A stretch of DNA of 64,000 nucleotides. Origin: Fistulifera solaris (lineage: Eukaryota). The stretch covers positions 1 through 64,000 of the forward strand of contig AP026135.1 of assembly GCA_030295235.1 (NCBI GenBank). The letters are read 5' to 3'. The translations under genes were made by a program, and so were the position numbers. Each line of letters begins with the position of its first letter. Position 1 is the first letter of the stretch. The notes below the pieces were generated by a model. It saw only the letters and a list, made by a program, of their open reading frames with translations. It did not search any database and was not told where the DNA came from. Of this stretch, positions 3,650 to 55,161 are shown one piece after another.

Positions 3650-6600
3650 TTACACCCGGGTGGTGTTCGTTTGCCCCATAACAGCTTGAACAGAGTCCAT
3701 CAATGCTTGTCCTTCAAAAAGAATTCTTTGACTTCTATTTCGAACGGGAACCTTTAAAGCGTCACCCTGAATATCAATGCAATCAGATTTCTGGACGCGG
3801 AGACCGTTGGTACCTAAAATGGCATCGAGTTCCGGAATGGCAGGCAATTCGACCATCACATCGTCGCCCATAACCTTGATTGGAAAGGTCAAAATTTTGA
3901 GGTCACCACCGAGCTCCTCGCCGTTTTCTAATGCAAAATTCTTCTTGTGCAATGGACATGCGACCTTCGGAGTTCCAGCGTTGTCGCCGATGATGCCTTG
4001 AGACAAGACGAAAGCCTGCTTGTGCGGACACATATTTTGAGTGCAGTACCATTCACCTCGGGCCACGTTATTGAAGACGGCCAATTGCGTTTCTCCTACT
4101 AGAATAGGTGTCCCAACATTTGGTCCGAAGTTGGACACCTTGCCGACGATAATCCAACTTTTCTCAGACTTTGCAAACACATCATCAGTTGGAGCACGCC
4201 ACATCGTTTGGGCCTGTCCATCTTTCGGCCAATCTGTCGGGCGCTTCTGGCCTCGCATGTCGACGAACTCAATCATGTGCTCTTTATCAATCGTCTTATC
4301 GGTGTTCGCGAACTGCTTGAACTTGGCGCGACGAGCTGGGTCCTTTACTACTTCGGCCTGCCGTACGATAGTAATGTTTGAGTTCTGGTTTTAGCGCGTG
4401 TCGAAGAAAAGTAAAACGACAACCATTTGACTTACCCACTCATCATGATAGGTGTCGACCAAATGCTTCATTCTGGCGTCAAGTTCCGCACATACTCCTA
4501 GCGAGTCGTCAATGATGACATCGCGCAAATGTCCAATAACAGTTCCGTCCTTTCCCTTTGGTAGCTTTTGCTGCCAAAAAGCCGTGCGCTCCAGACGATC
4601 AGCTGTCAGAATGTAATACATGATGTATCGGTCCAAATAGAGCAACACGGTGTCTTCGTCGATATCTGTAGCAAGCAGTTGTGCATGAACAGGAACTGAA
4701 CCTCCGTTACCGCCAACATACAAGTTATAGCCGTTTTCTGTGGCAATCATACCAAAATCTTTAGATTGCGCTTCTGCACACTCACGGACACAGCCTGACA
4801 CTGCACTCTTCATTTTGTGGGGAGATCGAATGCCCTTGTAGCGGTTCTCTACTCGCACCGCGAAACTTACGGCATCTTGCACTCCGTAGCGGCACCACGT
4901 TGACCCGACACACGATTTGACCGTACGCAGCGCCTTCCCGTAAGCGTGTCCCGACTCAAAGCCAGCCTCGCCCAACTCTTCCCAGATATCCGGCAGTTCA
5001 TGCTTGGCCGCTCCAAACAAATCAACACGTTGTCCTCCTGTAATCTTGGTGTAAAGATTGTATTTATTGGCCACCACACCCAATGCAATCAACTGATCAG
5101 GGGTTAGCTCGCCACCAGCCACGCGAGGAACGACGGAATATGACCCACCCCGTTGCATATTCGCTAGGGCCCGGTCATTTGTATCTTGAAGTGCTTCATT
5201 GTCGTCGATAATGACATCATTGACAAGCGAAGCCAAGATCGAACCCACAGTCGGTTTGCATATCTCACAACCGTCACCGCTTCCGTGTTTGTGCAAAATC
5301 TTTTCGAACGAATCAACGCTAGTAATATCCGGAGCTGTGCGGATCAAAGCCATCAGTTCTGGGCGACTGTAAGCGAAATGTTCACAAAGGTGATTAGAGA
5401 GACTACCACCAAGTTTTTCAAGCTCTGAGGCTAATACGGCTTTCACTTGGGACTCGCATCCTCCGCATCCAGTTCCAGCGCGAGAGCACTTTTTCACATT
5501 GGCGTATGTAGCCTCTTGAACACCGAGCTCTTGAACGACGGATGCAATCGCACCTCGGGTAACATCGTTACAGGAACAGATCTGAGTGTTGGGGTCGTCG
5601 CTTATGCTTTCTTCTTCCATTCCACTCTCTCCACGAGCCGAAGGTGGTGCGAGTAGGACAGCACCGGGCAGGTCGAGTTCTTTGTCGCCGGGCACAGCGA
5701 GCTTATGCAAACGGTCGTAATCGCCGGCATCGCCCACCAGAATTCCACCACGCAACTTTGTGCCGGCCTTGTTGAAAATCAATTTTCGATAAATGCCAGA
5801 AATAGGATCATTCCAGACCATCTCGCTAACATCCTGGTCATCCGGTCGGGGCTGGTTGACACCAAAGGAAGCCACATCGCAGCCGAGCAACTTAAGTTTT
5901 GTCGACATGTCGGCTCCAGTAAATTCTGGCAGTGCATCGCGAAAGACGCCCCAGTCGGCAGCAATACACTTGGCAGCGACATCCGCCATAACGTATCCCG
6001 GAGCAATCAAGCCGTAGATGAAATTATTGTAAAGAGCAATCTCGCCGATGGCATACACGTCTTCCACGCTTGTTTTCATGAAGTTATCGACGACTATGCC
6101 CCCTCGCTCGCCAATCGCTATGTTGGAACCGTCAGCTCGGGCCAAGTCGTCACGTGGTTTGATACCTGCCGAGATGATGACCATTTGAACCTCCAAATTG
6201 TCCCAGTTTTCATTACTAAAGCGCAGCGCTGCGACTGGACTTGTGCTTTCCATATCTGTCGACCCATCTTGACCGACAATCGACTCGGTGCGTGCACCAC
6301 AGTGAACCTTGAGACCCATTTCTTCGATCTTTCCCACTAAAGCATTGTGACCGCCTTGATCGATCTGTCGACACATGAGGATGTCCGCGAACTCGATAAT
6401 ATGCGATTCGAGACCCATGTCTTTGGCGGCTTTGGCAGCTTCCAATCCGAGCAAGCCTCCTCCGATGACGGCCGCCTTTTTCACGTTGTTGTCAGCGACA
6501 TACTTGAGCATGCTCTCCAAATCTTCGATAGTGCGGTAAACAAACACACCGGGTCGCTGCTTGCCGGGAATCGGAGGAACAAAAGGAAACGATCCTGTTG

Positions 6601-7045
6601 CCAAGACGAGTTTGTCGTAGGGGATCGTCCGACCGGATACTCCGGTCACCGTTTTGGATGCTGTGTCAACCGCGATAGCTTTATCATTCAAGTATAGCTC
6701 CACATTGTTTTCTTTGTACCAAGTCGTGCGTCCGTCTTCTTGAAATTCGCTCGTCATGCTCAAATCCGATGGATTTCTTGTTTCCAAAAAAGGATGTGAG
6801 TTTGACTCGATTGTAGGCGGCTCGTGGCTCCTCGCAAAAAGTACTCAATTGCACCGAAGGATCCAGTTTGAGGATATTTTCCATAAAACGCTGTCCGACC
6901 ATGCCGTTGCCAACCACAACGACGCGTTTCCCCGGACTGTCACTTTCGGATGCCATCGACAACGACAAGAACGATTTCTTCGTCGAATGAATGCCGACAA
7001 AGCAGTAGTGCTGCCTAGCAGCAAAAAGGACACGAAGGTTTTCAT
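3650..7045 (-). CDS. nirB: NAD(P)H-dependent nitrite reductase, NirB large subunit fused to NirD-like Rieske domain, with signal-peptide/plastid-type presequence
   Basis: FAD site VVVGNGMVG, NAD(P)H site IGGGLLGLEAA, BFD 2Fe-2S CSC...GTGCGGC, siroheme/4Fe-4S KSCVGSTWC and SGCVRECA, Rieske CPH...CPLH. GT-AG intron 4358..4435 restores DEW|AEVVKDP. Start MKTFVSFLLLGSTTALSAF at 7045; 1-nt frameshifts near 6985 and 6790. Confidence 0.93.
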
Positions 7046-30473: not shown

Positions 30474-33400
30474 ATGGTTCGACATCCGGAGCGCTTTGAG
30501 CCTAGTGAATCCTCTGACACAATATCACCTCAAGTCACTTTACCCTTCAATGAAGACACCAGTTATGTTTACGAACCTCTTCCAATATCGAAGCGGATGC
30601 AACAGAAACGGGCATTACATCTAAAAGAAGATTCGACAGAATTCGACGAGGAAGAAGGATCGAATGGAATTCACGATAAGCATCCTTCCACCTTCGGAAA
30701 CAGAAACGATTCAACGACCGCCTGGATATCGAGGAGACTGTATACTTCGAATGGATGGAGACTGATCAACACTTATTTGATTACGCCTTGCTCAGGAGCG
30801 CTGTGTTCGTCGAGGATCTGCCGTTCTCTGTATCAAAATGGACACTTTACTCCCTTGGGTCGAGAGGTTTGGCAGCTGGGTCTTGTCGTTTTCATATTTC
30901 ATCTGATTCCCATGTTTCTCTACTTCTTATTTGATCTGATAGGACTCAATGTCAGTTTTGGGGTTTATGTCGCGACTATGATCTTTCTGGTGACCATGTC
31001 CTTTCTGCTCCTCACCGAATGTTTGTGCGCATTCGGGCATTCGGGCCCTCCAAAAGCACCCGGCGTCCCCGAAACACCCGCGTCAGCTATTATTTGTGCC
31101 TATTTGCCCAATGAAGCCGAAATTATTGTGGAAGCAGTGGAACACTTTTTAAATCTAGAATACGAGCCGGGCATTCAGATCATACTAGCCTACAATACAC
31201 CCGTGCGTATTCCTGCCGTCGAAGAACAACTGGAAGTACTCGCGAATCGATTTCCCAATTTGCTGGTATTGTGCATTGAGAATTCTACTTCGAAAGCACA
31301 AAATATCAATGCTGCGCTGGATTTTGTCGTCGGGGACTTTGTAGGGGTATTTGACGCCGATCATCGACCAGAACTGCATTCGTTTTCACGCGCGTGGCGA
31401 TGGCTGTCCAACGGATACGATGTTGTGCAAGGTCATAGTGTATCGCGCAATGCGAAAGCTTCGTGGATGGCTCGGTTGATGGCGGTGGAAGCGGAATGTC
31501 ACTATGCAGTCTCCCGTGCCCGGGCAGACTACGCGTGATAAGATAGGCTTTTACCGGTCCAATGGTTACTGGAAAAGTCCTCTGTTCAAAAGAATTGGAA
31601 TGCTGGCGAGTATGAAAGCAGAAGATGTGGATGCTGGGATGATGGCTTTGGGTGAAGGTCGCAACATAGCGGTATGTATGCTAAGGAATTAATTTACGCC
31701 ATAGTTTGGCTTGTTTGATGCTTGGCTGACAATTGATCTCACGATTTTTACGATTATTATTATCGATGCAGATGGACCCACAATTGATCAGTCTTGACTT
31801 GTCAGCCACGACTCCTTTTCAGATATGGAATCAACGCATTCGATTAGCTCAGGGGTGGTTCCAGGTATCGATGAGACACTGCTTCCCACTTCTTTTTTGT
31901 CCTGCTTTAGGAGTTCGGCAAAAACTAGGTATTTTTCTGCATCTCAATGTCCGAGAAATGTTTCCATGGTTTTCATCGCAAGTCTTTACCTTGGTCTTTT
32001 ATTGGCTTATCTCGGATCGCAATCGAGATCTCATTCGACCGTTGCTACTTGCGTACATAACATATCTGCTTGTGGAGGGTCCCTTGACGGCCCTGGCGGC
32101 GTATTGCTTGTGCCAAAAGACAATGCGAAATCCATGGTGGTTTGTACAGTATGCTCTTTTCAATATTTTCTTTTTTGCCGCCGCCAAAGGTTTGTTTGCG
32201 CGTATGGGGCACATCAAACAAGCCACTGGCGAAAACATTTGGAGAGTGACACCACGATCGACGAAAGCTATTCACACTGCCCAACCGGAGCATGTTTTTC
32301 CGATACCGCAAGAGGCAGAGATCAAGGCCATCGGCGAGCCGAGCATGACGGTACTGACGATACAAAAAGTGGCGCAGTCAACACAACGAAATATGAAAAG
32401 CGTACTGCAGGAAAGTAGATTGCTATTTCAGGAGCGACTTGATCGCACTGACCGATCTCGGCATCATTTCAGCCGCCAAGAAGACGAGAGTATGATGATT
32501 GCCAAGCACAAGCTGCACCACATTGTACAGAGATGCGACTGGTCGTACGCAATCACGAATGTTGATTGCCTGGTTAGCACAAGTCCTGATGGCAGCCAAA
32601 GTGATGCTGACAGAGGTCGCCAAGGCGAAGAGTATCCGATCGAAAACAAAATTTCGGGTGTCACTCGTGTCGCGCCAAATCATATGCGGCGACCCAAGTC
32701 TTCCTGGGTAAAGTCCGAACGTGTGAAAGTGGTGGACAAAAGAAACCACTGTAGTCGTGCGAGCGAGAGCAGCAGTGATAGCCAAAGCCGTGGAAAGGCG
32801 TATGCAATGGATTGGAGCTTTCAAAACATGGATGGTGACTATAGTGTCTCCGTACAGCGTGCTGACTACGGTATACCTGTTTCGCCCGTTGATCAGAGTG
32901 TTTCGTTGCAGCCCTCCGATCATAGTGACTCAATCCGGACTTATGACATGTCGACATCACAAGCACAACAATACAAGCCGAGAACCACACGATTTCAAAA
33001 GGTCTTCAATTTTTCGAAACTTTTTTCAGGATCTGTTTCGAGCCGGGGAAGTTCCGATCTAAGCTCCTCCAAGAACTCGTTGCACACTGACTTCAGCAAA
33101 AGCATTGATGAAAATGGACCGGGTGCTTTCTGGACAAGAACGAAAGAGACAAGTATCGCTGACGAACACTCAAGTAGTACCGTTTCAGAGGCCCAACTTC
33201 CTTTGCAAGACACAACAGAAATGGGTCTCGAAAATGGATTGGAAGAAAACGGTGATGTGCAGCGCCTTCAGGCACAAAATTTAGCTGCCGCAATAATTCC
33301 TCTTCAGAATACCATTGGCCTTGTTTCATCAAACATTAAGAAGGGATTCGCTTTTGACCCGCCTTCGTCATCCATTTCAGAGACCGACGTGGCGTTTCGT

Positions 33401-36033
33401 CCCGATCCACCCTTAAAAGAGGTCTCTCAGACGATCCAGAAAGATGGCATCCAGCCGACTCTTGCAGGTCAACCTTTAAAAGAACAGTACTGGAAGAAAA
33501 GAGGTCGATACTGGGCCACGAACAGCGATAAATCAGGATCGGGCGCTACGCCATCGGGAGAGTCTTCAAAGCCGCATCGAGTGCGCAGGGACCCCGAGGG
33601 AAGACGTAAGCCGCAGAAACGTCGACACAGAGACGCACCGAGTAAGCTAGGCCGGATATACACCATTGAGGAATCACAAGATGGCAATGCGTCGGACGAG
33701 ACAGGTAACTTGGATGTACTGAGTTATACACCTAACGAGATTCATTCAGGGTTACGGTGTGCCGATCCTCCGGCAGAAGAAATGCCATCGACTAGTCATC
33801 ATGGCTGTGATATATCCATTCAGACATCATTCGACTCAGCTCCTATAATCTTGGGTGCATGTTATCCAAGCCACAATCCAAATCTGGCGCAGCAATCGGA
33901 TATAAAGCCTTTATCTGACCTCTCTGACGACAGATTATTGCAAGCTTCGCACGCGGATGCTCCAGCAGAGCTTATAAAATGCCCGTATTGTCTTGACTTA
34001 GATCAAAACGTAACGATCGATGAAGATAGTGAGGCTGGGCGATACGGAACAAAAACTGAAAGCGAAGAGGAAGGAGGGCATTCTGTCATTATTGCATCAA
34101 CGACGACAGGCATTACTGGTCTGTCTTTTGATGAAGTACGTGTCGATCGTGAATTGCAATTTGTTCATGATAGGAATGAGGTGCTTGAATATGCTACTTT
34201 GATTTCACAAAGTGGCAGAGGAAATTGTAGTGTTTCGACTTCTAACCAGGCTTGTAGCGATGACGCCCTTATTGCCGAAGTCGTGGAACAAGGTACAGAG
34301 TTTACGCTTGACGAAAAAGCAGCAGCAGATCCGCTTGGATACGCTGACAAGGCAGTAAGTGAATATACTGTCGATATGCAAGCGCGGAGAAGAGATGATG
34401 CTAGTATTGATCGAACTCATGGATCCACTGATATTCAAGCGGGCACGCTGTATTCTTGTTCGGATAATAATGTCATGTATTCTTTAGAACAGCATGACGA
34501 TACCGAGGCTTCAGAGGCTATGTCTGAAGGTCTCACAGAATGTTCGTGCGGACCCGAATCGAAAGGCTGTGCGTCCATGTATTCATTCATTTCAAAAGCC
34601 GAAGACGCCAAACATTTATCTACAATAAATGTGGTAGATTGTATCTCTATCGATTCGAGTGACCTTATAGATTGCGACGAAATGTGCAGAAGCACCAAGA
34701 TTATTCGAGTGGATACTAACTCAGAGTATGATATCGCTGAGTCTGTAGATGAACACCTTTGCGCCAAAGATCCTCTCAATCAATTCCTAGATGCAAATTC
34801 TACAGCTAACGGCCAACACTTTGGGGATGGTCATGACTTGGTTGCACTCCAAGAAATGATGGCGCTTGAGATGAATCGTGAATACAATGCAACCGATAAC
34901 TACGTAGAGGCGGAGTCTGATACTAGGCTAGACGATCGAGGATTCAAGCTTCAGCCATTACCGACCGAGAATGAGCCATCGAAACGGAGGTCCTTTTTCA
35001 AAGAACTACCAATGACAGCAGCTCTTGATGAACTTTCAGAGGGTGTTTCTGCTAAGCACGATCAATCATCGTTTTCAAGCCGTTCGCAGCCAAAAACTCT
35101 CAACGTGATTACTCCTCGTGCAGACGGCCTTTCCAGCCCTTCAAAAAATAAAACGTCGAGGCGATCCCACGAACAAATATATTTTCCTTTCCGACCGCCC
35201 GTTCACATCGAGCTTGACGACGTGGCATCGCTCAGTGATAGCGTCTCATTTGCAGGGATGACTATCCATTCTTGCTCGCAATCGCACAGTGCTACACATA
35301 TCGGCGACTTTGATGATGTGCCTAAGACAGATGACCATTTATCAGTTGGCTGTGATCCATCAAACGATGCATATTCAAGCACTCTGGAGATCGAATCAGA
35401 ACATTATCAAGACACAAATTCTTGCAATTTTGTTCTCGAGGGGCACGACCACAGTACAAATTCAACCTCCAACCTACAGAGAGGCAGCTTTGAAAATGTG
35501 CACGAGTCGAGAGTCTACGCAGATCTAGCTGCTCCAATAAAGAACAATTTGAATGAATATTGTTTCAGAGAAGTATCGCACGAATACGAAATTGGTGTTA
35601 CTGAAAAGCCAGATTATAGCGACCCGCCGGCAAAGGAAAAAAGCGGAGTTGACGTAGCATCAAGCGACGGAGACGAGCAGTTGTTGGTCAAACCCACCCT
35701 CTGCTCAAACATGCGGATTTCTACAAGCCAGTCTACCGCTGATGAAGAGTCTGCTGTAACTGTAACCGAGGAAAACATACATTCGTGCGACGCAACCGAA
35801 CATTCCACATCATGGATTCAAAACTTGCTAGACACCATGGATGAGGAAATCATTTTTCTGATACATTGCTACCCTTTGTAGAAGATGACGATGAAGAAGT
35901 TCCCGACTTATTGCCGTCAGTTACTGAGCAAGATACATTTCAAACAGCATCGTCGCAAAGCTACGATGAACCAAATAACCGCAACGATTGGGTAGGCGAC
36001 GAAGTCTCAACCGTCGATTTGACTGTAAACTAA
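30474..36033 (+). CDS. GT2 glycosyltransferase paralog B with degenerate catalytic motifs and ~1200-aa acidic/Ser-rich tail
   Basis: AYLPNE, SKAQNIN, FDADH, VVQGH retained; TED is AED, QxxRW is QRIRL, GGSNG is YRSNG; intron 31672..31771 at the same position as in paralog A; frameshifts near 31518 and 35855 (corrected stop 36031-36033). Confidence 0.8.
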
Positions 36034-36625: not shown

Positions 36626-37897
36626 ATGCCTCCTTTGCAGCGTATTCCTTCAAACCAAACCATTTCAGAGACTCGCACATCTGTTTCAACCCATCGTTTC
36701 AAGACAGGTCGGGACGATGTAAGCGAAAATCACGTTCAAGGCTGTTTACCCGTAATTAAAAAACGAGTCAAGAGGACAATAGCTAGAACTCCTTTTCTCC
36801 AGTCCATTCCTCCAAAAGACAACGTTGCGTCCATTGGACAATTTATGAGGTCTGAGATACGGATTGGTAAGAAACTCGGAGAAGGAGGTTACGCGGAGGT
36901 ATATGAAATTGAAGCGTTCGATCTATGCCCCGTGACGTCCAGTAAATACTCCAAAGATATGCAAACTATCCGAGCAAACTTTCAAAGAGACGCGATCGAC
37001 CCATCGACAGGAAGATGTCGCTACGTGATCAAGCACATGAGGAAAAGCTCCCTGGAAAAAAGTCGAGGCGAGTTTGCCACGGGAGTAGCGGATATGGCTG
37101 CGGAAGCATCCTATTTGATGCGTTTCAAGCATACCAATATTTTGTCACTTCGCGGCCTTCCCTCAAAAGGACTGGAGTCTCTAGAGGAGGGCAAATACGA
37201 CAGCTTCTTTCTAATCCTCGATCGGATAACTGAAACTCTCAACGAGAGAATTGTCCGATGGCGTTTGGAGGAAAAGCAAAACAAGAAAACCAAGATTTTA
37301 TACAGCAAACAAATCGCGAGTGCTTTGGAATATCTTCACAGCCATCGAATCGTCTACCGCGACATCAAGCCGCAAAATATTGGGATCGATTCGAATGAAA
37401 ACATTGTGTTGTTCGATTTCGGTCTCTGCCGACAACTCCCTGCAACGCCCGGCGACAGCAATGATGTTTACAAATTAGCGAGGGCCGGAACACGACGCTA
37501 CATGGCACCAGAAGTCGCCGCTCAAGCATCCTACAATTGCAAGGCTGATATCTACGGATGGTCACTTGTCGTTTGGCAAATGTTTACACTGGCAAAACCT
37601 TTCTCGGCGTACAACGAACATTCGCATCTCAAATATGTTTGCATTGGGGACGAGCGACCAGCTCTGAACCTTCTGGATAGCATGAAAAGTCTTCACGAGG
37701 ACATTTACTTTCCTGTACCGAAATCAATCAGGGCTATCCTCGTGAAGACATGGGATGCATCGCACACCAAGCGTCCAGGAATGCACTCCGTTTGTTGCGA
37801 GCTTGACAGCCTACTGACGCGCCAGACAAACAAAACTCCCAACCGATTCAGTCGTCTCGTTTCGGGAAACCGAAAAGTCCGTGTCGTCAATGCCTAA
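36626..37897 (+). CDS. Ser/Thr protein kinase
   Basis: LGEGGYAEV, YVIK, YRDIKPQNIG, LFDFGL, GTRRYMAPE, ADIYGW, RP; intact 423-aa ORF. Confidence 0.92.
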   Translation: MPPLQRIPSNQTISETRTSVSTHRFKTGRDDVSENHVQGCLPVIKKRVKRTIARTPFLQSIPPKDNVASIGQFMRSEIRIGKKLGEGGYAEVYEIEAFDLCPVTSSKYSKDMQTIRANFQRDAIDPSTGRCRYVIKHMRKSSLEKSRGEFATGVADMAAEASYLMRFKHTNILSLRGLPSKGLESLEEGKYDSFFLILDRITETLNERIVRWRLEEKQNKKTKILYSKQIASALEYLHSHRIVYRDIKPQNIGIDSNENIVLFDFGLCRQLPATPGDSNDVYKLARAGTRRYMAPEVAAQASYNCKADIYGWSLVVWQMFTLAKPFSAYNEHSHLKYVCIGDERPALNLLDSMKSLHEDIYFPVPKSIRAILVKTWDASHTKRPGMHSVCCELDSLLTRQTNKTPNRFSRLVSGNRKVRVVNA

Positions 37898-38917
37898 AAT
37901 TATATTCTATAGAATACAGTATCATCAGCTCACGATTCTACGCCCCTTTTTTATCTTTATTACGGAGTAGATGTCACATGCCACTCATTAAAATATCTTG
38001 CTTCGGTTCTGCCGAACTCGTGACTTTTTGACGCGGGACGGATGTCAGACACGCTTTCATCACTCGCCCTCACTATGCTCGGATCTCGAATGACATTCTC
38101 TTTCTTGTTGTTTGATGTTTGATGGCTGATGATTGATGATGAACGTTTATGAATGATTCGAGCGCAAACGCAGGTAAAAGCGGAGAGGTGGTGGTTGTGC
38201 ACTGTTTCTACCGTCAACACTATTGTATCAACATTGTTGTGGGGTATGAGGGACTGAGGATTGTACGATAATTTCACTTCAATCGAGCAAGTTCAACTAG
38301 AAAAGCGGAACGCAGAAACGAAAGCACAGCAAAGTTCAAGATGGGAGATTTAGCATGGATTTTACCTACAATCATTCCTATTTCGGTGTCTTGCGTCTGA
38401 TAAAAGATGTACTAAAAGATAAATGACCATTTGTTGCTGAATAATTCTCGGAAGCTCTTGCCGCTTCCTATTTCACTTAGGTCCAGTTACCGTTTACCGT
38501 AATACGAAATACGAATAGGGAAGTCTGGAGTTAGAGTACCAGGTACCTGATACACTTGACTCCTAACTAACTCCCAACTTTTTTCCTAACTTGAATCTGC
38601 GCTTGGCACTGTGCGCTGGCAGTTGGCAATCAGCAATCCAAGTTTAATTATTTAGTGCGCCGTATAAAGTACACCTTTCTGTGCTTTTAGAATACCAAAC
38701 TGTCCCTCTCGACTTTTCTATGCGTCACGTACATCATCGGCTGAATACAACGGCGGGAGAAGCGAGAGGCGGCTCGGAACGCAGAACGCTCGCAAGTTCG
38801 CTCTCCGCAAGAAGGCTTATCAATGCAGTCCAAAGGTGCCTTGAAAGGTGTGCCTTGCTCATCAATCGGACAATCATTTCATCCAATTTATCTTGTAATA
38901 TAATACTGCACGCAACA

Positions 38918-40669
38918 ATGAGACACGACGACTTACTTATCACACTAGCTTACTTCTCCATCCCGATACAGCTGCTCATCTCGCTGTATTATTATCCGCT
39001 GTTGAAAGTTACCCCCAAACGATTCCTCGCGCTGATTGTGCTTTTTGCCTTATTCATTATGCTTTGTGGCGTGGGTCACTTGCTTCGAGCGTTCGGAAAA
39101 CACGGCGACGGCTTTGAACTCTTGAACGGCTTAACAGCAGCCATCAGCGTGACGACTGCTCTTTATTTGATTCCTATGATTCCTAATATCATGGCTACGA
39201 TCGAAAATGCGCTCGCTGAATTGAAAATGAAAGAAGAACTAGAAGAAATCAAGAACCGAAAGCTGATGACTTTCATAGGTTTCTTGTGTCATGAAGTTCG
39301 CAACCCGCTCTTTGCGATTACAAGCAGCATTGCATTTATGAAAGAAGGAGGCAACGAGAGTGATCGTGTCAATTGTCTTTGCTCGATTGAGCAAAGCGCG
39401 AATCTCATGCTACGATTAGTGAATGATGTGCTTGATATTAGCAAGCTCGAGTCGGGGAAAGTCGAGCTGGAGTTGAAAGGATTTAATGTTCTGGATCTGT
39501 TGAATGGGATATCCGCGTCTATCCAGACGCAAGTTCGCCATATGCGAGGCGCTACGGTGACTTTCACTTCTCATATAGGAGAAAATGTACCAGCAGTCAT
39601 CGAAACAGACCCCGCTCGGCTGCTTCAGATTGTATACAACTTGCTCTCGAACGCTTCCAAGTTCACTGAGAAAGGGAAGATTGATTTCATGGTAGATGTG
39701 GTACGCTATGATGAGGCTTTTGGAGATGATTCGCATACGGATGAATCATCACTGAGACGCTTACTGACAGGCGATGAGCCCGATTTTTCGGTGCAGTTGC
39801 TAGCGAGCGATGATCAAGCGTTCGTCTCCGGAAATCGTTCGGACCAACATGTTCTCAAAATCGTGGTAGCAGATACTGGGTGCGGAATCGCTCCCGATCG
39901 AATCAATGATATCTTTCGACCTTTCAATCAATCCAAAGTGTCAGATTTTAGAAAGTTCGGAGGGACTGGTCTGGGTCTAAGCATCATTGCGCAACTTACA
40001 AAGGTGATGTCAGGAAGGATTCAAGTCGATTCGAAAGAGAACGAAGGATCGATTTTCACTGTTTATTTACCCGTGCTAATCCCCACAACTCTCCAAGCAC
40101 CTCCGATGCTAGATACCGAATCAATACTACATGACTCCATCAAGAACAGTCGCTTACCGCCTATGCTCATAAATGAAGGCAGCATAGAATTTGAAGATGT
40201 AGTTGGACACGAGGCAGCATCTGCCATGGCAATTGCACCGCCTTCCGTCCGTGACATTGATGAGCTCGGAATTCTACCAAAGAAAAGTAGGGTTTTAGTT
40301 GTTGACGACAACACCGTGAATCGGAAAATTCTAGGACGAATGTTGGCGAGCTTCCAACTGGAGGTAGAGTTTGCTACAAATGGACAGGAAGCGGTGGATA
40401 TTCTCACAAGTGTACCTGGTTTTGGATTGGTATTGATGGACTTGGATATGCCTGTGTTAGATGGTATATCTGCAACCCGAGTGATTCGGCGAGACTTGGG
40501 TTTGACAGATCTGCCCATCATTGCCCTGACGGCATTTGCGGTCCAAACACAAGCGACGGACGCCCTGGATGCCGGGGTGACAGAATTTGCGACAAAACCT
40601 ATTCTCAAAGAGGACTTGCGACAGAAGTGCTGTCGGTATTTATTGAATAGGACAGACGAGATCGTCTAA
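38918..40669 (+). CDS. Ethylene-receptor-like hybrid histidine kinase 1 (3-TM ethylene-binding domain, HisKA, HATPase, REC)
   Basis: DDLLITLAYFSIP...FIMLCGVGHL...LTAAISVTTALYL.P.IP aligns by eye with the ETR1 ethylene-binding domain; H-box LCHEVRNPL, N-box NLLSNASKFT, G1 DTGCGI, G2 GGTGLGL, receiver VVDDN/LMD/KP; ATG placed at 38918 by comparison with the paralog. Confidence 0.9.
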   Translation: MRHDDLLITLAYFSIPIQLLISLYYYPLLKVTPKRFLALIVLFALFIMLCGVGHLLRAFGKHGDGFELLNGLTAAISVTTALYLIPMIPNIMATIENALAELKMKEELEEIKNRKLMTFIGFLCHEVRNPLFAITSSIAFMKEGGNESDRVNCLCSIEQSANLMLRLVNDVLDISKLESGKVELELKGFNVLDLLNGISASIQTQVRHMRGATVTFTSHIGENVPAVIETDPARLLQIVYNLLSNASKFTEKGKIDFMVDVVRYDEAFGDDSHTDESSLRRLLTGDEPDFSVQLLASDDQAFVSGNRSDQHVLKIVVADTGCGIAPDRINDIFRPFNQSKVSDFRKFGGTGLGLSIIAQLTKVMSGRIQVDSKENEGSIFTVYLPVLIPTTLQAPPMLDTESILHDSIKNSRLPPMLINEGSIEFEDVVGHEAASAMAIAPPSVRDIDELGILPKKSRVLVVDDNTVNRKILGRMLASFQLEVEFATNGQEAVDILTSVPGFGLVLMDLDMPVLDGISATRVIRRDLGLTDLPIIALTAFAVQTQATDALDAGVTEFATKPILKEDLRQKCCRYLLNRTDEIV

Positions 40670-41802
40670 GTCAAAATCTTCATCAGTAAATTTAGGAAGC
40701 TAGACACTAAAATGAACAATTATGTTGATCTATTTGGAGTTTTTCATCATTCTGAGTATGCTATGCCGAGGAAAGGCGCTAGTCTTCAGTGTCGTCGACG
40801 ATACAGTATAAAATGGCTTGAGTCCGACCAAAACCTCATGACTCACGACTCACGACCCACCATCGCAGGTGGTTGTTAGTTGTTGGTACTTGTAATAAAG
40901 CCTAAACAGGAAACTGCTCCAAAGGAGAATACTTTCACTCAACAACTATCATCATCATTCATTCTATGTTCTGAAAAAATTCCTACACGGAGTTTAAATT
41001 GACTCATGACCATCCTAGCTCGTCTCTCACTCATGCGCATCGGTACCCAGTCTTTAAGTAAAATTAATCGTTTACATAGTCACACACGTTTACCGGTATT
41101 ATTGCAGTCATTACCTGGTGAGAGAAAGTGAAACCCGACTCGGCACCCGACCAGCAGCAGATGGCAGATGTCTGGATTTTAGATTTTGGACAGCAGGGAA
41201 CAATACACTTCTTCAAAGTTCAATGCTCCGTGATGATGCAAAGAAGCTACTTTTTCGGAAAGAGTACCAAATACTGTAAACGTACTTCTTTGAAAGTCAA
41301 CGAAATTTTTTTTAACATTAAGTATTTATTCCAAATAAGATTCGGAATTCGGACGACTTGTTTCTGTGGCTTCTGGTCGTCAGAGACACTGATTGATGAA
41401 TCATCACTCATCACTACTTTGTATACACTATCACCTATCCCCTGGTGCCATGGTCAATGGTCAATGGTCACACCCGTTTCAAAAGAGACCACGTTTTCTT
41501 GGCTTCTTTGTTTTTCTTTTCCAGGTGAAAACAAGAAAACAATAGCCTACGACTACTACTATCCAGCCTACTCTATACTCTACTCTGCATCATCGATCAT
41601 CGATCATAGCAACTTTTGTCTTTTGTTGACACGTCATCGTTTTAAAGTACGTGGCATCCGGTCTCTAGGTCTAGACTTTGTACGTACACAAGACGCTTAG
41701 CCTTATTTTCACCCGACTAAGTGGAATTGGTTCTATAAAGAGTTTATGTAGCATTTTGTGTTACTGACTACAACCGGAAGCAACAAGTTGTTAAAAAAAT
41801 AT

Positions 41803-41840
41803 TACGTGACACGTGATACGTGATCTGCATTTTTACGTGC
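41803..41840. promoter_or_regulatory. Cluster of four ACGTG (G-box-like) cores upstream of histidine kinase 2
   Basis: tACGTGacACGTGatACGTGatctgcattttTACGTGc; first three spaced 7 bp apart, ~230-260 bp before the ATG at 42064. Confidence 0.35.
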
Positions 41841-42063
41841 TTCGTTTCCGAAATTCGGAAGGTCAAGCTTTGCTGTATGGGCCGTGGTGGGTGTAGGTTG
41901 TAGAGCGATCAAAACGCGACAAATGTCTGCTCGCGGGCTTGCGGATTGCGGACGCTCGCGTTTGCCGTGGAGGACAATCCATTGTCTTCGTTTTATAGTT
42001 CAGAAGGACGTCGATTCGTAAATAATTGCTTGGTAACAAACAAACAAACAATAATCAACTATC

Positions 42064-43809
42064 ATGAGACACGATGACTTACTAATCACATTGGCGTATT
42101 TTTCTATCCCGATACAGATTTTGATTTCTTTGTATTACTATCCGCTGTTAAATGCTACGCCGATACGATTCTTGGCCCTTTTCGTGTTGTTCGCCCTTTT
42201 CATTCTGCTGTGTGGGATAGGGCATCTATTCCGAGCCCTTGGAATACATGGCGATGAATTCGAGCTCTTGAATGGTTTAACGGCCGCAGTCAGTGTCATT
42301 ACCGCACTTTATTTGATTCCCATGATACCCAATATCATGTATACGATTAAAACGGCGTTAGACGATATCATTCTACAAGAAGAATTAAACAAGAATCGAA
42401 AACTAATGGCTTTCATGGGCTTCTTGTGTCACGAAATACGTAATCCGCTCTTTGCGATAACGAGCAGTATTGCCTTTATGAAAGAAGGAGGCAACGAAAA
42501 GGATCGTATCAACTACATTTATGCGATCGAGCAAAGCGCTAATCTCATGCTGCGATTAGTAAACGATGTTCTCGATATTAGCAAGCTCGAATCAGGCAAG
42601 GTTGAGTTAGAAAGGAAAACCTTCAATGTTCTGGATCTTCTGAATGGTATATCAGCTTCCATCCAGTCTCAAGTTCGTCATATGCGAGGGGCTGCAGTTG
42701 CTTTCAATGCTAAAATCAGCCAGAACGTTCCAACTGTCATCGAGGCGGACCCCGCACGACTTCTTCAAATTATTTACAACCTACTATCGAATGCCAGCAA
42801 GTTTACCGAACAAGGAAAAATTGACTTTAAGGTGGATTTAATAGCTTACGAGGATGCTTTCGGAGACGATCCTTCCACCGAGAGCGGTGGACGGCGTTCC
42901 TTGCAGGACGATGAAGCGGATTATTCGGCACGTTTGCTGGAAAGAGATGACTCAGTATCAAAGTCGGCGTATAGACCAGAGCAACATGTCCTCAAAATTG
43001 TGGTTGCAGATACTGGTTGTGGAATCGCGCCAGATCGTATCGTCGACATCTTTCGACCTTTCAACCAGTCCAAAGTCTCCGACTATCGCAAGCACGGAGG
43101 GACAGGTCTTGGTTTGAGCATTATCGCACAGCTGGTTAAAGTCATGGCTGGAAGAATTCAGGTCGACTCGAAAGAAGAAGAAGGATCGACTTTTACGGTT
43201 TACCTACCTGTCTGTTTACCTTCTGCCCTGACAACATCCTCTGCTCTTGATACCGATTCGATCTTGAACGACTCGATTAAGAACAGGCGTTTACCGCCTA
43301 TGCTTACAAACGAGAACAGAATAGATCGCTTTGACGACTCGGAGAACAGCAGCTCGGATTCACCACCGCCGATGTCGCGGCCTCAAACTGACGACGTGGA
43401 CGATTTTCGACATTTGCAGACTGATAGTAAGGTACTAGTGGTCGATGATAACACGGTGAATCGAAAGATTCTTGGACGAATGTTAACGAGTTTCCATCTG
43501 GAGATAGAATTTGCAACAAACGGTCAAGAGGCGGTTGATATTCTTGCCAGCAGATCCGGATTTGACTTAGTACTGATGGATTTGGATATGCCTGTCTTAG
43601 ATGGTATATCGGCAACCCGCATAATCCGGAAAGAACTCAGATTGACCGAGTTACCTGTAATTGCTCTGACAGCATATGCCGTCCAAACACAGGCCAAAGA
43701 GGCACTGGATGCAGGTGTGACGGAATTCGCTACAAAGCCCATCTTGAAGGAAGACTTGCGCCAAATGTGTAGCCGATATTTACTGAAGCGAACGCAGGAG
43801 ATAGTGTAG
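42064..43809 (+). CDS. Ethylene-receptor-like hybrid histidine kinase 2 (tandem paralog)
   Basis: Same architecture and motifs (DDLLITLAYFSIP, FILLCGIGHL, LCHEIRNPL, DTGCGI, GGTGLGL, VVDDN, LMD); intact 581-aa ORF. Confidence 0.92.
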   Translation: MRHDDLLITLAYFSIPIQILISLYYYPLLNATPIRFLALFVLFALFILLCGIGHLFRALGIHGDEFELLNGLTAAVSVITALYLIPMIPNIMYTIKTALDDIILQEELNKNRKLMAFMGFLCHEIRNPLFAITSSIAFMKEGGNEKDRINYIYAIEQSANLMLRLVNDVLDISKLESGKVELERKTFNVLDLLNGISASIQSQVRHMRGAAVAFNAKISQNVPTVIEADPARLLQIIYNLLSNASKFTEQGKIDFKVDLIAYEDAFGDDPSTESGGRRSLQDDEADYSARLLERDDSVSKSAYRPEQHVLKIVVADTGCGIAPDRIVDIFRPFNQSKVSDYRKHGGTGLGLSIIAQLVKVMAGRIQVDSKEEEGSTFTVYLPVCLPSALTTSSALDTDSILNDSIKNRRLPPMLTNENRIDRFDDSENSSSDSPPPMSRPQTDDVDDFRHLQTDSKVLVVDDNTVNRKILGRMLTSFHLEIEFATNGQEAVDILASRSGFDLVLMDLDMPVLDGISATRIIRKELRLTELPVIALTAYAVQTQAKEALDAGVTEFATKPILKEDLRQMCSRYLLKRTQEIV

Positions 43810-43965
43810 TAGCGGCAGCCAGGATGGCCGATTGTCTTTGTAAATTTCACCCACAATTCATTTTTCCGATGACTCCATTAAATGATAAGGACCTTTTCCG
43901 TTAATGATAAAAACATAGAACTTATGGCAACAGCACCATTGTCTTACACGACAGTCACATAAGTT

Positions 43966-44446
43966 TTACTTCTTGAAAGTCGAATACAACTGATACATGC
44001 CCCATATCGGAAACAGCCAAATCCCCCAGGAAATGAATCGTAGTGAAAGGATAGAAGCGTATTGAAGAAAAATAGCCAAGCCCAAGACATCCAACGATTT
44101 TCCTCCCGTCAGTTCACTACCTCTACTGCTCTTCGCGGAAACCGAAGTTGACGTTCCTATGGCAGCGTGCTCTAAAATACCCTTGTAAGCTATGTACTGA
44201 ATCATTATTAGAACAGCTAGTCCGAGCCCTTCCCATTTGAAAGTGCAAGGTCTTGGTGAAACAAATACTCGTATGGCAGCATAAATGAAATTGAGAACCA
44301 AAATGATTGGTTGATAAGTCGATGAAGCCGCCTGACGCGCTGATTTGAGACGATTTTGTTGTGAGACAATATTGTGGGAAACGAAAAAGAGGGTGAGTAC
44401 TTTAATAGTTACCTGCGGTGGCCTTCTTCGCAGCAGCTCCAGCCAT
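43966..44446 (-). CDS. TMEM208/SND2 (DUF788)-like small membrane protein
   Basis: Exon 1 MAGAAAKKATA, intron 44340..44412, then ARQAASSTYQPIILVLNFIY; several TM helices; G.EL.GG..LDVL segment. Confidence 0.6.
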
Positions 44447-52659: not shown

Positions 52660-55161
52660 ATGCCCCGCCGCAGTCGTCGTGCCGTCTACGATCCGACTAT
52701 CGAAAATGATCAGTTGATGAAAACAACGCTATTTCGAGATGATCCTTTAGCGATGAATGCGGATCCCGAAGATGACATTCGTCAATGGAGTAACGCTTCT
52801 TCATCTTCTTCCGCGGTGATTTCGAAACGAAAATGGTGTTACATCGTGTCAGCTGTAGCAACCATCGTTCTCATGGTTGTCGTAGGCGTCGCGGTACGCA
52901 ACAACAACAGCCGTGGAAGTAGTAATAATAATACTACAGTCAGTAGCAATTCCGGCAACACCGCCCCCGTCGCAGCACCCGTTGCCGCACCGACGTCCGG
53001 CCAAATTCCTCTCTTAGATCCACCCATTGCGACCTTATCGCAACTCTGTTCTCGTGACCGTGTTCAACAAGCCGATAAACGGGGTCTCTGTGAAGCGGAG
53101 TGTGCCAAGGCGGCTTGTTGTGCTCTCGATTGTGACACGGGTGCGAATGTCGCGACGTGTCAAGCCTACGAAAAGATTTGTGAAATATTGCTGCTGACGG
53201 AAGTCGTGCCCAGTGAAGGAGGTTTAGCGATGCCTCCCAACAATTTGTCGCAATTCTGTGCCTTAGATCAGTTAATGAGTTTACAAGGCTATCAAACCTG
53301 TGAAACCATGTGTCAAGTGGCCTCGTGCTGTCATTTGCCCATGAGTGATCCGACGAGCTGCAATGTCCCCTATCACACCGAGTGCCTCGCCTATCATTCG
53401 GTTTGTGGCGTCCTCGAACATGTGTCGGCGCCGGAACAAAGCCAAGCCAAAGAACTCGATTTGCCATCGGAGGAAATCGCCGACTGGTGTGCCCTCGAAC
53501 AATTGCAAACACTCGAAGGATACGAAACGTGTCGCAAGGCTTGTGAACCGGCTAGCTGTTGTACGGCAACACAAGAATCATCGCAACTGAATTGTTTTCA
53601 AGAATATGCGTACGAATGTGATGCCTACGCAGAACCCTGTGGTGCATTGTTGCGAGTGGTGCCTCCCCCTCCCGACAATTTGCCCGCTCTCTGTGGGGTC
53701 GACCAATTGCAAACTGTAGCTGGCTATGAAACATGTGAAGACATGTGTGAACGAGCCTCGTGTTGTCACGAAGGAATGCAGCTGTCGTGTGCGTCCGATC
53801 CACTCTGTTTGGAATATCAAGGACCGTGTAGTATTTTAGAGACGGCCGTCAAGCCCAGTTCGGCGGAAACACCCGTGGCGGCCAATCAAGGAGTGAGTTC
53901 GAACCGCATGCATCCGCCTCCGTCGTTTATTTCGGAACAATGTACGGAAGAAAATATTTCAGCGTCGACAGAAGGACGTCAACGATGTTCCGATATTTGT
54001 GTCGAAGCTCTCTGTTGCAATTATCCTAGCAATTTGCCGGAATTGTCTTGTTTGGCCGGTAACGAGGATATCTGTGCCGAGTATTTTTCTTATTGTGCCC
54101 TGTTGGATGTAGCCTCGAGTGTGGATGATGCAGAAAGTCCGATGAAACCGCCATCGGAGTGGTCACACGAATACTCTGCTACTGACATTTATACAGCCTG
54201 TGCGGACTTGAGCACTCCCGATGGCATTCAACAATGCCATGATGTGTGCACCGAAGCTCGCTGCTGTTACTCGACGGGTACCGATAGTTGCATAGACGAC
54301 GAGCGCTGCGATGATTTTGATATGTGCTTCAACTACAAGGCATTGTCTTACATTCATGAGGATATTCCTACCTTGATTGCTAGTAACTGTGCGGATTTGG
54401 AGAGTTTGGAAGGACTTGAATTGTGCGAGGCCTCGTGTGAACAGGCCGAGTGCTGCTTTGCGGAAGGTGAAACATTTGATTGTGAAGGTGTTGATTTGAG
54501 TTTTTGCAGTCAATATGCTGCCTGTGAAGTCCTGGTTCGAGAGAACCTTGGTGATCCGGATCAAATGTCCGATCTTATTGGAAAGAATTGTGATGATTTA
54601 GTGACTTTGAATGGAATTCAAGTGTGTCAGGCCTTGTGTGAACCGGCTGTCTGCTGCTACACAAACGACAATACGATTGATTGCCAGGAAGAGGATCTGA
54701 ATGTTTGCGGATACGGATACCAAGAATGCGAGAACTTGTTTGATTTAGCAGTGGAGGACAGGTCTCGAATATCTAACTTGGTTGAACAAAATTGTGCTGA
54801 TTTGGTGAGCTTGGAAGGTCGCGAATTGTGTGAGGCGTCGTGTAAACCGGCCATCTGCTGCTTTGCAAATGGCGCTGCAAATGATTGTGAGGATCGAAGA
54901 CTGAGTTATTGTGGTCAATATCAAGCATGTGAAGCCTTCTTTGAAAATGAGCTTGGTGAAGATGAGAATGATGTTATCACTGTACCTGACAACGAGCCCT
55001 CACGCGAGCAAATTGAGCTGGCGTGTCAAATTTCCAATTTGAACTACGAAGGTTGTTTGACTCTTTGCGACAAGGGACGATGTTGTTGGAACAGTGACGA
55101 AACCATTTGTTCCAGCGGAATAGATTGTTCGACGTATGATTCATGTGCCATTTTGGTGTGA
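52660..55161 (+). CDS. Single-pass (type II-like) membrane protein with 10 acidic Cys-rich repeats
   Basis: Intact 833-aa ORF; TM WCYIVSAVATIVLMVVVGVAV near aa 59-79; repeated C-x3-C-x2-A-x-CC...C-x2-Y-x2/3-C units. Confidence 0.85.
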   Translation: MPRRSRRAVYDPTIENDQLMKTTLFRDDPLAMNADPEDDIRQWSNASSSSSAVISKRKWCYIVSAVATIVLMVVVGVAVRNNNSRGSSNNNTTVSSNSGNTAPVAAPVAAPTSGQIPLLDPPIATLSQLCSRDRVQQADKRGLCEAECAKAACCALDCDTGANVATCQAYEKICEILLLTEVVPSEGGLAMPPNNLSQFCALDQLMSLQGYQTCETMCQVASCCHLPMSDPTSCNVPYHTECLAYHSVCGVLEHVSAPEQSQAKELDLPSEEIADWCALEQLQTLEGYETCRKACEPASCCTATQESSQLNCFQEYAYECDAYAEPCGALLRVVPPPPDNLPALCGVDQLQTVAGYETCEDMCERASCCHEGMQLSCASDPLCLEYQGPCSILETAVKPSSAETPVAANQGVSSNRMHPPPSFISEQCTEENISASTEGRQRCSDICVEALCCNYPSNLPELSCLAGNEDICAEYFSYCALLDVASSVDDAESPMKPPSEWSHEYSATDIYTACADLSTPDGIQQCHDVCTEARCCYSTGTDSCIDDERCDDFDMCFNYKALSYIHEDIPTLIASNCADLESLEGLELCEASCEQAECCFAEGETFDCEGVDLSFCSQYAACEVLVRENLGDPDQMSDLIGKNCDDLVTLNGIQVCQALCEPAVCCYTNDNTIDCQEEDLNVCGYGYQECENLFDLAVEDRSRISNLVEQNCADLVSLEGRELCEASCKPAICCFANGAANDCEDRRLSYCGQYQACEAFFENELGEDENDVITVPDNEPSREQIELACQISNLNYEGCLTLCDKGRCCWNSDETICSSGIDCSTYDSCAILV

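Follow-up and report, generated by a model that had tools for sequence, protein, structure and literature searches.

A tandem pair of ethylene-receptor-like hybrid histidine kinase genes in the diatom Fistulifera solaris

Whether diatoms possess ethylene sensors built like those of plants is the question raised by two neighboring genes in a stretch of Fistulifera solaris DNA (NCBI GenBank assembly GCA_030295235.1, contig AP026135.1, positions 1 to 64,000 of the forward strand; these 64,000 nucleotides are called the window here). Both genes encode hybrid histidine kinases that open with a three-helix membrane domain of the type through which the Arabidopsis receptor ETR1 binds ethylene (ethylene-binding-type domain, EBD). 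As a whole, we consider it rather probable that the locus holds two expressed, intact, and anciently duplicated diatom nuclear genes for membrane sensor kinases, with an ETR1-type EBD as the sole input module and a predicted role in copper-based sensing of ethylene. The two open reading frames (ORFs) are referred to as copy 1 and copy 2, and the translation of neither contains an internal stop.

38918..40669, plus strand: copy 1 coding sequence (P0001, 583 amino acids [aa]), a hybrid histidine kinase with the architecture ETR1_N-HisKA-HATPase_c-receiver (from the ORF, Pfam, and the absence of joints in contigs).
42064..43809, plus strand: copy 2 coding sequence (P0002, 581 aa), with the same architecture and 75% protein identity to copy 1 (from the ORF and Pfam).

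Over aligned nucleotides the two copies are 71% identical. Their DNA similarity (family D3) sets in exactly at both ATG codons and is confined to the coding sequence. In copy 2, an in-frame TAA lies four codons 5' of the ATG, and in an alignment of 23 rows most diatom proteins begin with MRxDD, either directly or after a short leader. Copy 1 has a further in-frame ATG at 38720, 66 codons upstream (38720-38917), which would add 66 residues. This ATG could serve as an upstream start codon within the 5' leader, or it could fall outside the transcript. Since neither copy 2 nor the homeolog shows an equivalent ATG, the start of copy 1 was taken as 38918. The start codons at 38918 and 42064 are well supported, and with these starts helix 1 is preceded by about four residues.

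The membrane domains of both copies matched the Pfam family ETR1_N (PF25487) at more than twice its curated cut-off of 27 bits, with 58.9 bits for copy 1 (E = 6.2e-16, residues 4-93) and 60.4 bits for copy 2 (E = 2.1e-16, residues 4-92). These matches are far beyond chance. They cover profile positions 9-96 of 97 and show homology at the level of the domain.

38918..39196, plus strand: copy 1 EBD, residues 1-93, three helices (Pfam, residues, and AlphaFold2 helices), with D5, Y12, I15, and P16 in helix 1, I47, C50, and H54 in helix 2, and S77 and P89 in helix 3.
42064..42339, plus strand: copy 2 EBD, residues 1-92, with the same nine residues as copy 1 (Pfam and residues).

The first of the two key stretches, DDLLITLAYFSIP, occupies residues 4-16 in both copies, and the second, at residues 46-54, reads FIMLCGVGH in copy 1 and FILLCGIGH in copy 2. 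Within the helices, the nine residues are separated by 7, 3, and 4 positions (helix 1), 3 and 4 positions (helix 2), and 12 positions (helix 3). These distances are those of ETR1 D25, Y32, I35, and P36, of I62, C65, and H69, and of S98 and P110. The numbering is offset from that of ETR1 by 20 in helix 1, 15 in helix 2, and 21 in helix 3; with the spacing inside each helix unchanged, only the loop lengths differ from ETR1. Support for this residue mapping comes from three sources (the Pfam profile, the spacing test, and the alignment in the literature), none of which is an alignment to ETR1 of our own.

The functional meaning of these positions is known from ETR1. According to the accessible text of PMC6586836, the copper site is formed by C65 and H69, D25 contacts the copper, and ethylene binding depends on a set of residues that includes I35, P36, and I62; S98 and P110 are needed in signal transmission, and residues 4 and 6 form disulfides. 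A content of about one Cu(I) per monomer is reported for ETR1. Seven residues are given as required in the EBD in PMC6682694 and PMC6944256, as far as the accessible parts of these papers go. The role of Y32 was adopted from the residue list of the first-pass annotation, which had been made from the DNA sequence alone, and not from the cited papers.

Conservation was assessed with a profile of 14 N-terminal domains, to which 246 distinct proteins were aligned. The rows were divided by a regular expression for the PHGxC leader of the cyanobacterial type, which was present in 85 and absent from 161. In the 85 rows of the PHGxC type, Y, I15, I47, C, H, and S were each found in 85/85, D in 79/85, and P16 and P89 in 83/85 each. 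Many of the 161 leaderless rows are N-terminally incomplete or lack the domain, and they were counted only where the column holds a residue. On this basis, helix 1 retained D in 113/117, Y in 117/122, I15 in 118/122, and P16 in 117/122 rows. In helix 2, I47 was found in 116/144 rows (V in 18) and C and H in 142/145 each, and in helix 3 S was found in 153/156 and P89 in 153/153. A search for relatives of the membrane domain in the PDB gave 0 matches at E<=10.

Downstream of the EBD, the HisKA, HATPase_c (in two stretches that flank an insert), and Response_reg families were all matched above the Pfam cut-offs in both copies.

39269..39457, plus strand: copy 1 HisKA (DHp), residues 118-180, with the phospho-accepting His125 in HEVRNP (Pfam and motif; H125 invariant in 56 diatom sequences).
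39596..40075, plus strand: copy 1 HATPase_c, approximately residues 227-386, with N-box residues N241/N245, G1 box DTGCG at 319, and G2 box GGTGLGL at 348 (Pfam and motifs); an insert at about residues 272-304 was modeled with low confidence (predicted local distance difference test [pLDDT] <50).
40292..40627, plus strand: copy 1 receiver, residues 459-570, with D463/D464, the phospho-acceptor D508, T538, and K560 (Response_reg, 79.5 bits).
42412..42597, plus strand: copy 2 HisKA, residues 117-178, with His123 in HEIRNP (Pfam and motif).
43432..43767, plus strand: copy 2 receiver, residues 457-568, with the phospho-acceptor D506 and LMDLDMP at 504 (Response_reg, 87.6 bits).

The motifs HE(V/I)RNP, NLLSNASKF, DTGCG, GGTGLGL, VVDDN, LMDLDMP, ALTA, and TKP were present in both copies. 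Besides H125, the residues N241, N245, D319, G321, G323, D463, D464, and D508 and the G2 box were invariant in the 56 diatom sequences, and T538 and K560 were conserved in at least 90% of them. No GAF domain was matched by Pfam in either copy even at E<=1, the gap from the end of helix 3 to HisKA is only about 25 residues, and C50 is the only cysteine among residues 1-120 of both proteins. Thus, the initial description of the locus held in its structural points: both proteins start directly with a three-helix transmembrane domain carrying the ETR1-matching residues, the HisKA, HATPase, and receiver motifs are intact with their catalytic His, Asn, G-boxes, and receiver Asp, and neither a GAF domain nor the N-terminal disulfide cysteines are present.

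How such a sensor might address the kinase was approached with an AlphaFold2 model of copy 1, built from the 56-sequence alignment (mean pLDDT of 73.7; predicted template modeling score [pTM] of 0.51). The EBD was modeled as helices 3-25/27-31 and 34-58 and a third helix from residue 64, at pLDDT values of 74-90. This third helix runs unbroken over residues 64-142, through the linker and into the DHp helix that bears His125. Two segments were disordered in the model, namely the insert in the ATPase domain (272-304) and the linker to the receiver (404-448). By hydropathy, helices 1 and 2 were found in both copies. The model gives a moderate indication that sensor and kinase are coupled by one continuous helix, and a GAF domain may be dispensable because such a helix would provide the coupling.

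Both genes are probably transcribed. Contigs from four small public runs of one study (X1 to X4; the kind of run is not on record and was guessed) were aligned to 37900-44400. In X3 and X4, contigs carried 21 non-templated A residues after 40719, about 50 bases past the stop codon of copy 1, and an X4 contig carried 18 non-templated A residues after 43935, about 125 bases past the stop codon of copy 2.

40670..40719, plus strand: copy 1 3' untranslated region, to a probable poly(A) site near 40719 (X3 and X4 contigs with 21 non-templated A).
43810..43935, plus strand: copy 2 3' untranslated region, to a probable poly(A) site near 43935 (X4 contig with 18 non-templated A).

These ends are positive evidence for polyadenylated transcripts of both genes. 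Contigs of X1 spanned the whole of 37900-44400, including the spacer between the genes, and none of the contigs on this interval contained a splice joint, which fits single-exon genes. Contig depths were not used to rank copy 1 against copy 2. In X2 to X4, the region between the genes and that upstream of about 38827-38832 were uncovered; this was not used as evidence on the transcript start or on the ATG at 38720.

The two genes are single-exon and belong to a signaling family of bacterial type, as might be expected if they were bacterial contamination, an assembly artifact, or decaying duplicates rather than functional diatom genes. Yet we regard such an origin as extremely improbable. Contigs with poly(A) ends extend past both genes, and the genes flanking the pair on both sides are typically eukaryotic (protein kinase, RING finger, and inositol-trisphosphate kinase). 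Identity to even the nearest prokaryotic EBDs is only 25-42%; in prokaryotic genomes, these EBDs occurred at 12 loci, in Bacillus and relatives, Leptolyngbyaceae, Chlamydiota, and Bdellovibrionota, and the 14 control genomes of the same search contained no ETR1_N domain. In addition, the tandem pair recurs on three further contigs, where the copy-1 proteins are 90-91% identical to copy 1, and both frames are open under strong constraint.

This constraint was estimated from Nei-Gojobori counts. Between the paralogs, the nonsynonymous distance (dN) was 0.17 and the proportion of synonymous differences (pS) was 0.73, which is saturated, so the resulting dN/dS ratio (omega) of about 0.06 is rough. 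Nevertheless, purifying selection on both copies is clear. The first-pass annotation had described a duplication with both copies kept intact, and the open frames and the low paralog dN/dS agree with this. By part, the EBD (dN 0.10, omega of about 0.03) and the receiver (dN 0.10) evolved slowest and the linker at 391-455 evolved fastest (dN 0.49).

These rates also bear on the possibility that the three helices merely anchor or dimerize the protein in the membrane, while control of the kinase comes from elsewhere, such as the variable cytoplasmic linker or the ATPase-domain insert. No other input domain is recognizable, and the parts that change quickly are precisely this linker and the insert at 272-304, with its pLDDT of <50. 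In a mere anchor, however, there would be no reason for a buried Cys, His, and Asp to stay invariant. The EBD is moreover among the slowest parts of the protein, and C50, H54, S77, and P89 were invariant in 56/56 diatom sequences. A pure anchoring role is therefore improbable in our view, and a sensory role of the EBD is preferred.

The duplication is old, as the synonymous sites are saturated. Its placement was examined with a quick maximum-likelihood tree, for which 27 rows were selected out of about 250 proteins (named diatom proteins, some unnamed ones, and two outgroups), with support from the Shimodaira-Hasegawa-like approximate likelihood ratio test (SH-aLRT) only. Eight Fistulifera-type proteins formed one clade (support of 100), within which a clade of copy-1 proteins (99) separated from one of copy-2 proteins (98); both comprised the respective window protein and three others. 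From this split, the duplication is specific to the Fistulifera lineage and older than the separation of the three versions of the locus that were seen. One version is formed by GAX21919.1 (P0003, 91% identical to copy 1) and GAX21918.1 (P0252), both from Fistulifera solaris and encoded on one 274-kb contig. Another pair, P0004 and P0005, lies on one 32.6-kb contig: P0004 represents a third version about 90% identical to copy 1, and P0005 (580 aa) is 74% identical to copy 1 and belongs to a 90% cluster that includes P0252. A pair on a 26.6-kb contig (P0250 and P0251) is near-identical to named F. solaris proteins. Thus, public data contain at least three versions of the tandem locus. We take F. 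solaris to be allodiploid, which would explain two homeologous pairs.

The core of this finding is already known for the species and has been published on the basis of sequence. Kabbara et al. (Genome Biol Evol 2019; PMC6324907) examined 34 histidine kinases of F. solaris and described FsolaHK12 to FsolaHK15 as ethylene-receptor homologs whose three N-terminal helices bear all residues of ethylene perception. In Supplementary Fig. S4 of that paper, FsolaHK13 is drawn with three helices and the H, A, and R modules, without GAF; it was also aligned to ETR1 and slr1212, with the same conclusion on the residues. Table S1 gives GAX13824.1, GAX13825.1, GAX21919.1, and GAX21918.1, that is, two pairs of adjacent accessions. 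P0003 is HK14 and P0252 is HK15; as these are the homeologs, the pair in the window, whose proteins are recorded in NCBI, UniRef, and EukProt on a 242-kb contig, is, by elimination, most likely FsolaHK12/13. The accessible text of the paper does not discuss tandem arrangement, duplication age, selection, or expression of FsolaHK12 to FsolaHK15. Reviews have repeated the point about ethylene-receptor homologs in F. solaris (PMC6944256, in its accessible part, and PMC7700396). The first-pass annotation was correct that such domains had been reported by sequence outside plants, but it underrated the earlier work, in which these genes or their homeologs were published as FsolaHK12-15, GAF-less and with the same residue argument. 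A separate preprint (bioRxiv 10.1101/2024.02.19.579948) states in section 11 that, among stramenopiles, EBD-like kinases apparently occur only in brown algae, which conflicts with Kabbara et al. and with the large diatom family found here.

Compared with ETR1, the diatom proteins share the three-helix EBD with the same residues and the same spacing within helices, and behind it a histidine kinase and then a receiver. ETR1 differs in that a GAF domain separates its EBD from the kinase, in its leader of about 19 residues with the Cys4/Cys6 disulfide pair, and in the length of the loop between helices 1 and 2. Nothing at the pair in the window suggests an output of the CTR1/EIN2 type as in plants, and the neighboring protein kinase is of a generic type. 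The bacterial receptors SynEtr1 (slr1212, Synechocystis), GeiEtr1/2 (Geitlerinema), and AzoEtr1 (Azospirillum) are likewise EBD-histidine kinases outside plants and, in the accessible descriptions, keep the seven residues. Their leader is about 30 residues long and holds one Cys (PHGxCYLW), and they have extra PAS, GAF, or cyanobacteriochrome modules, whereas the diatom proteins have neither the leader nor the extra modules and end in a fused C-terminal receiver. Other nonplant eukaryotes, namely, early-diverging fungi, Capsaspora, and Acanthamoeba, are reported to have homologous EBD kinases, identified from sequence only (Herivaux 2017 and Kabbara 2019). In Allomyces javanicus P0164 (1,297 aa), which was among the matches obtained here, about 360 residues separate the EBD from HisKA, in contrast to about 25 in the diatom proteins.

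The family extends widely beyond Fistulifera. The closest named relatives were those of F. solaris itself, followed by proteins of Mayamaea, Seminavis, Nitzschia, and Amphora and of a metagenome-assembled genome of Bacillariaceae (40-48% identity), and PF25487 was annotated in 93 of the best 120 full-length relatives. Among 1.84 billion sequences, the profile of 14 N-terminal domains matched 6,185 representatives at E<=1e-3 and 1,504 at E<=1e-10. Past the block of diatom-type proteins, almost all of the matches listed carried the PHGxCYLW leader, and no plant proteins were identified among the best 150 profile matches (names were checked for three). A word-indexed search with residues 1-100 kept 15 of 385 candidates, all of the diatom type except for one cyanobacterial-like protein.

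Outside the kinases, the nearest relatives of the sensor were fusions to nucleotide cyclases. In P0121-P0125, P0140, P0142, and P0146, which come from metagenomes and assemblies, a leaderless diatom-type EBD is joined to a class III adenylate/guanylate cyclase. Proteins of the cyclase type made up 5/15 matches of the word search, at 48-54% identity to the window sensor, and both ETR1_N and Guanylate_cyc were above cut-off in 5/18 scanned proteins (P0121, P0124, P0140, P0142, and P0146). The fragment P0141, from the centric diatom Minutocellus polymorphus (MMETSP), has the sensor and appears cyclase-like by eye. In a limited search, the accessible literature on these domains contained no mention of an EBD-cyclase fusion. 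Tentatively, and with the chances somewhat against it, diatoms might use one stripped-down copper/alkene sensor, lacking the leader, the Cys clamp, and GAF, for two outputs, a His-Asp phosphorelay (in duplicate at this locus) and cyclic-nucleotide synthesis (in the cyclase fusions).

Several observations speak against ethylene sensing by the pair. The segment ahead of helix 1 is missing in the diatom clade, so that profile positions 1-8 are unmatched and no Cys precedes the helix; plant receptors have two leader cysteines and cyanobacterial ones have one (PMC6682694, accessible part). The ETR1_N scores of about 60 bits compare with 104-143 bits for cyanobacterial EBDs, the latter taken from a Leptolyngbya genome with five ETR1_N genes. 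The loop between helices 1 and 2 is of a length unlike that in ETR1, as seen from numbering offsets that differ between helix 1 (20) and helix 2 (15). In copy 1, helix 3 stayed below the hydropathy threshold set, which it passed in copy 2 only. The helix from the third transmembrane segment to the DHp reached a pLDDT of only 58-71 over residues 91-180, in a monomer model of a dimer; histidine kinases work as dimers. Finally, a 2020 review (PMC7700396) knew of no functional studies on homologs from the stramenopile-alveolate-rhizarian (SAR) group.

Part of this would fit a true copper-bearing relative of the EBD whose natural signal in diatoms is not ethylene. The cue could instead be a different small molecule, either unsaturated or a pi acceptor, or the membrane's own copper or redox state. 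The diatom-type EBDs form a clade of their own: in a FastTree of the domain, rooted at midpoint and restricted to the 154 of 249 aligned rows that filled at least 88 of 98 columns, the window sensor fell into a clade of 110 rows without members of the PHGxC type (support of 0.87). The leader segment that these proteins lack, as noted with the low score above, is found in all proven receptors, and the fusion of the same sensor to nucleotide cyclases marks it as a general-purpose input module. Literature searches yielded nothing further on the perception of, or response to, ethylene in a diatom. On the other hand, all residues of the ETR1 ethylene site are kept and near-invariant, beyond the two copper ligands. 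Ethylene binding or response was shown for SynEtr1[1-130] and for Geitlerinema cells (PMC6682694), as well as for AzoEtr1, and in the accessible reports every EBD tested so far bound ethylene. A signal other than ethylene is thus unlikely, although it deserves more weight than the anchoring role, and ethylene sensing through copper remains the preferred reading.

For the proposed mechanism, a dimer would hold Cu(I) at Cys50/His54 on helix 2, in a pocket that may be lined by Asp5, Tyr12, Ile15, Pro16, and Ile47. Ethylene or a similar small alkene would partition from the membrane and bind the copper. The change would then be relayed via helix 3 (Ser77 and Pro89), which is predicted to run on into the DHp helix with His125 (His123 in copy 2), so that a GAF relay would be unneeded. 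Autophosphorylation would be switched in this way, with the phosphoryl group passing to Asp508 (Asp506 in copy 2) of the fused receiver and then, presumably, to a histidine-containing phosphotransfer (HPt) protein and a response regulator whose genes lie elsewhere. No HPt protein or response regulator was found among the 18 window ORFs scanned. The term "minimal gas-sensing phosphorelay", coined in the initial annotation, may reasonably be applied to this predicted arrangement.

Ethylene occurs in surface seawater. If diatoms do connect one such sensor to both outputs, ethylene or a related marine alkene would be a genuine signal for major primary producers of the ocean, and the module of about 115 residues, its helix 3 leading directly into the kinase helix, would be the simplest natural core of an ethylene receptor for structural work. 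The pair are obvious candidates for ethylene perception in phytoplankton, and have been in print as such since 2018. Here, we add the poly(A) ends on both copies, the strong and long-held constraint, the broad diatom family, and the predicted coupling through a single helix, which together make the pair worth a bench test.

The surroundings of the pair were characterized by a Pfam scan of 18 window ORFs, and several of the families found are typically eukaryotic. Neighboring ORFs encode a NirB-type nitrite reductase, a RING finger protein, a nucleotidyltransferase of the poly(A)-polymerase type, an inositol-trisphosphate kinase, two GT2 glycosyltransferases, an M43 peptidase, a protein kinase, SelO, and an alpha/beta hydrolase. 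The protein kinase, a Ser/Thr kinase of 423 aa at 36626-37897 on the plus strand, lies about 1 kb upstream of copy 1. It was considered as a CTR1-like partner and rejected, being generic by Pfam and having no CTR1/Raf among its best 60 PDB matches. The ORF at 4391-6757 on the minus strand encodes the NirB-type NAD(P)H nitrite reductase, with Pyr_redox_2, Fer2_BFD, and NIR_SIR domains; because this ORF begins only inside the Pyr_redox_2 profile, the gene probably has a further exon upstream. Two plus-strand ORFs, at 31766-35881 (1,371 aa) and 52660-55161 (833 aa), matched no Pfam family at E<=1e-5.

The region between the two kinase genes gave no sign of a shared promoter, as the upstream regions of copy 1 and copy 2 have no similarity to each other.

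40670..42063, no strand: intergenic spacer, which includes a multi-copy repeat at about 40911-41072 (repeat families and contig depth).

At this repeat (40911-41072), the summed contig depth in run X1 was 662, in comparison with about 17 around it, and many contigs ended at its borders.

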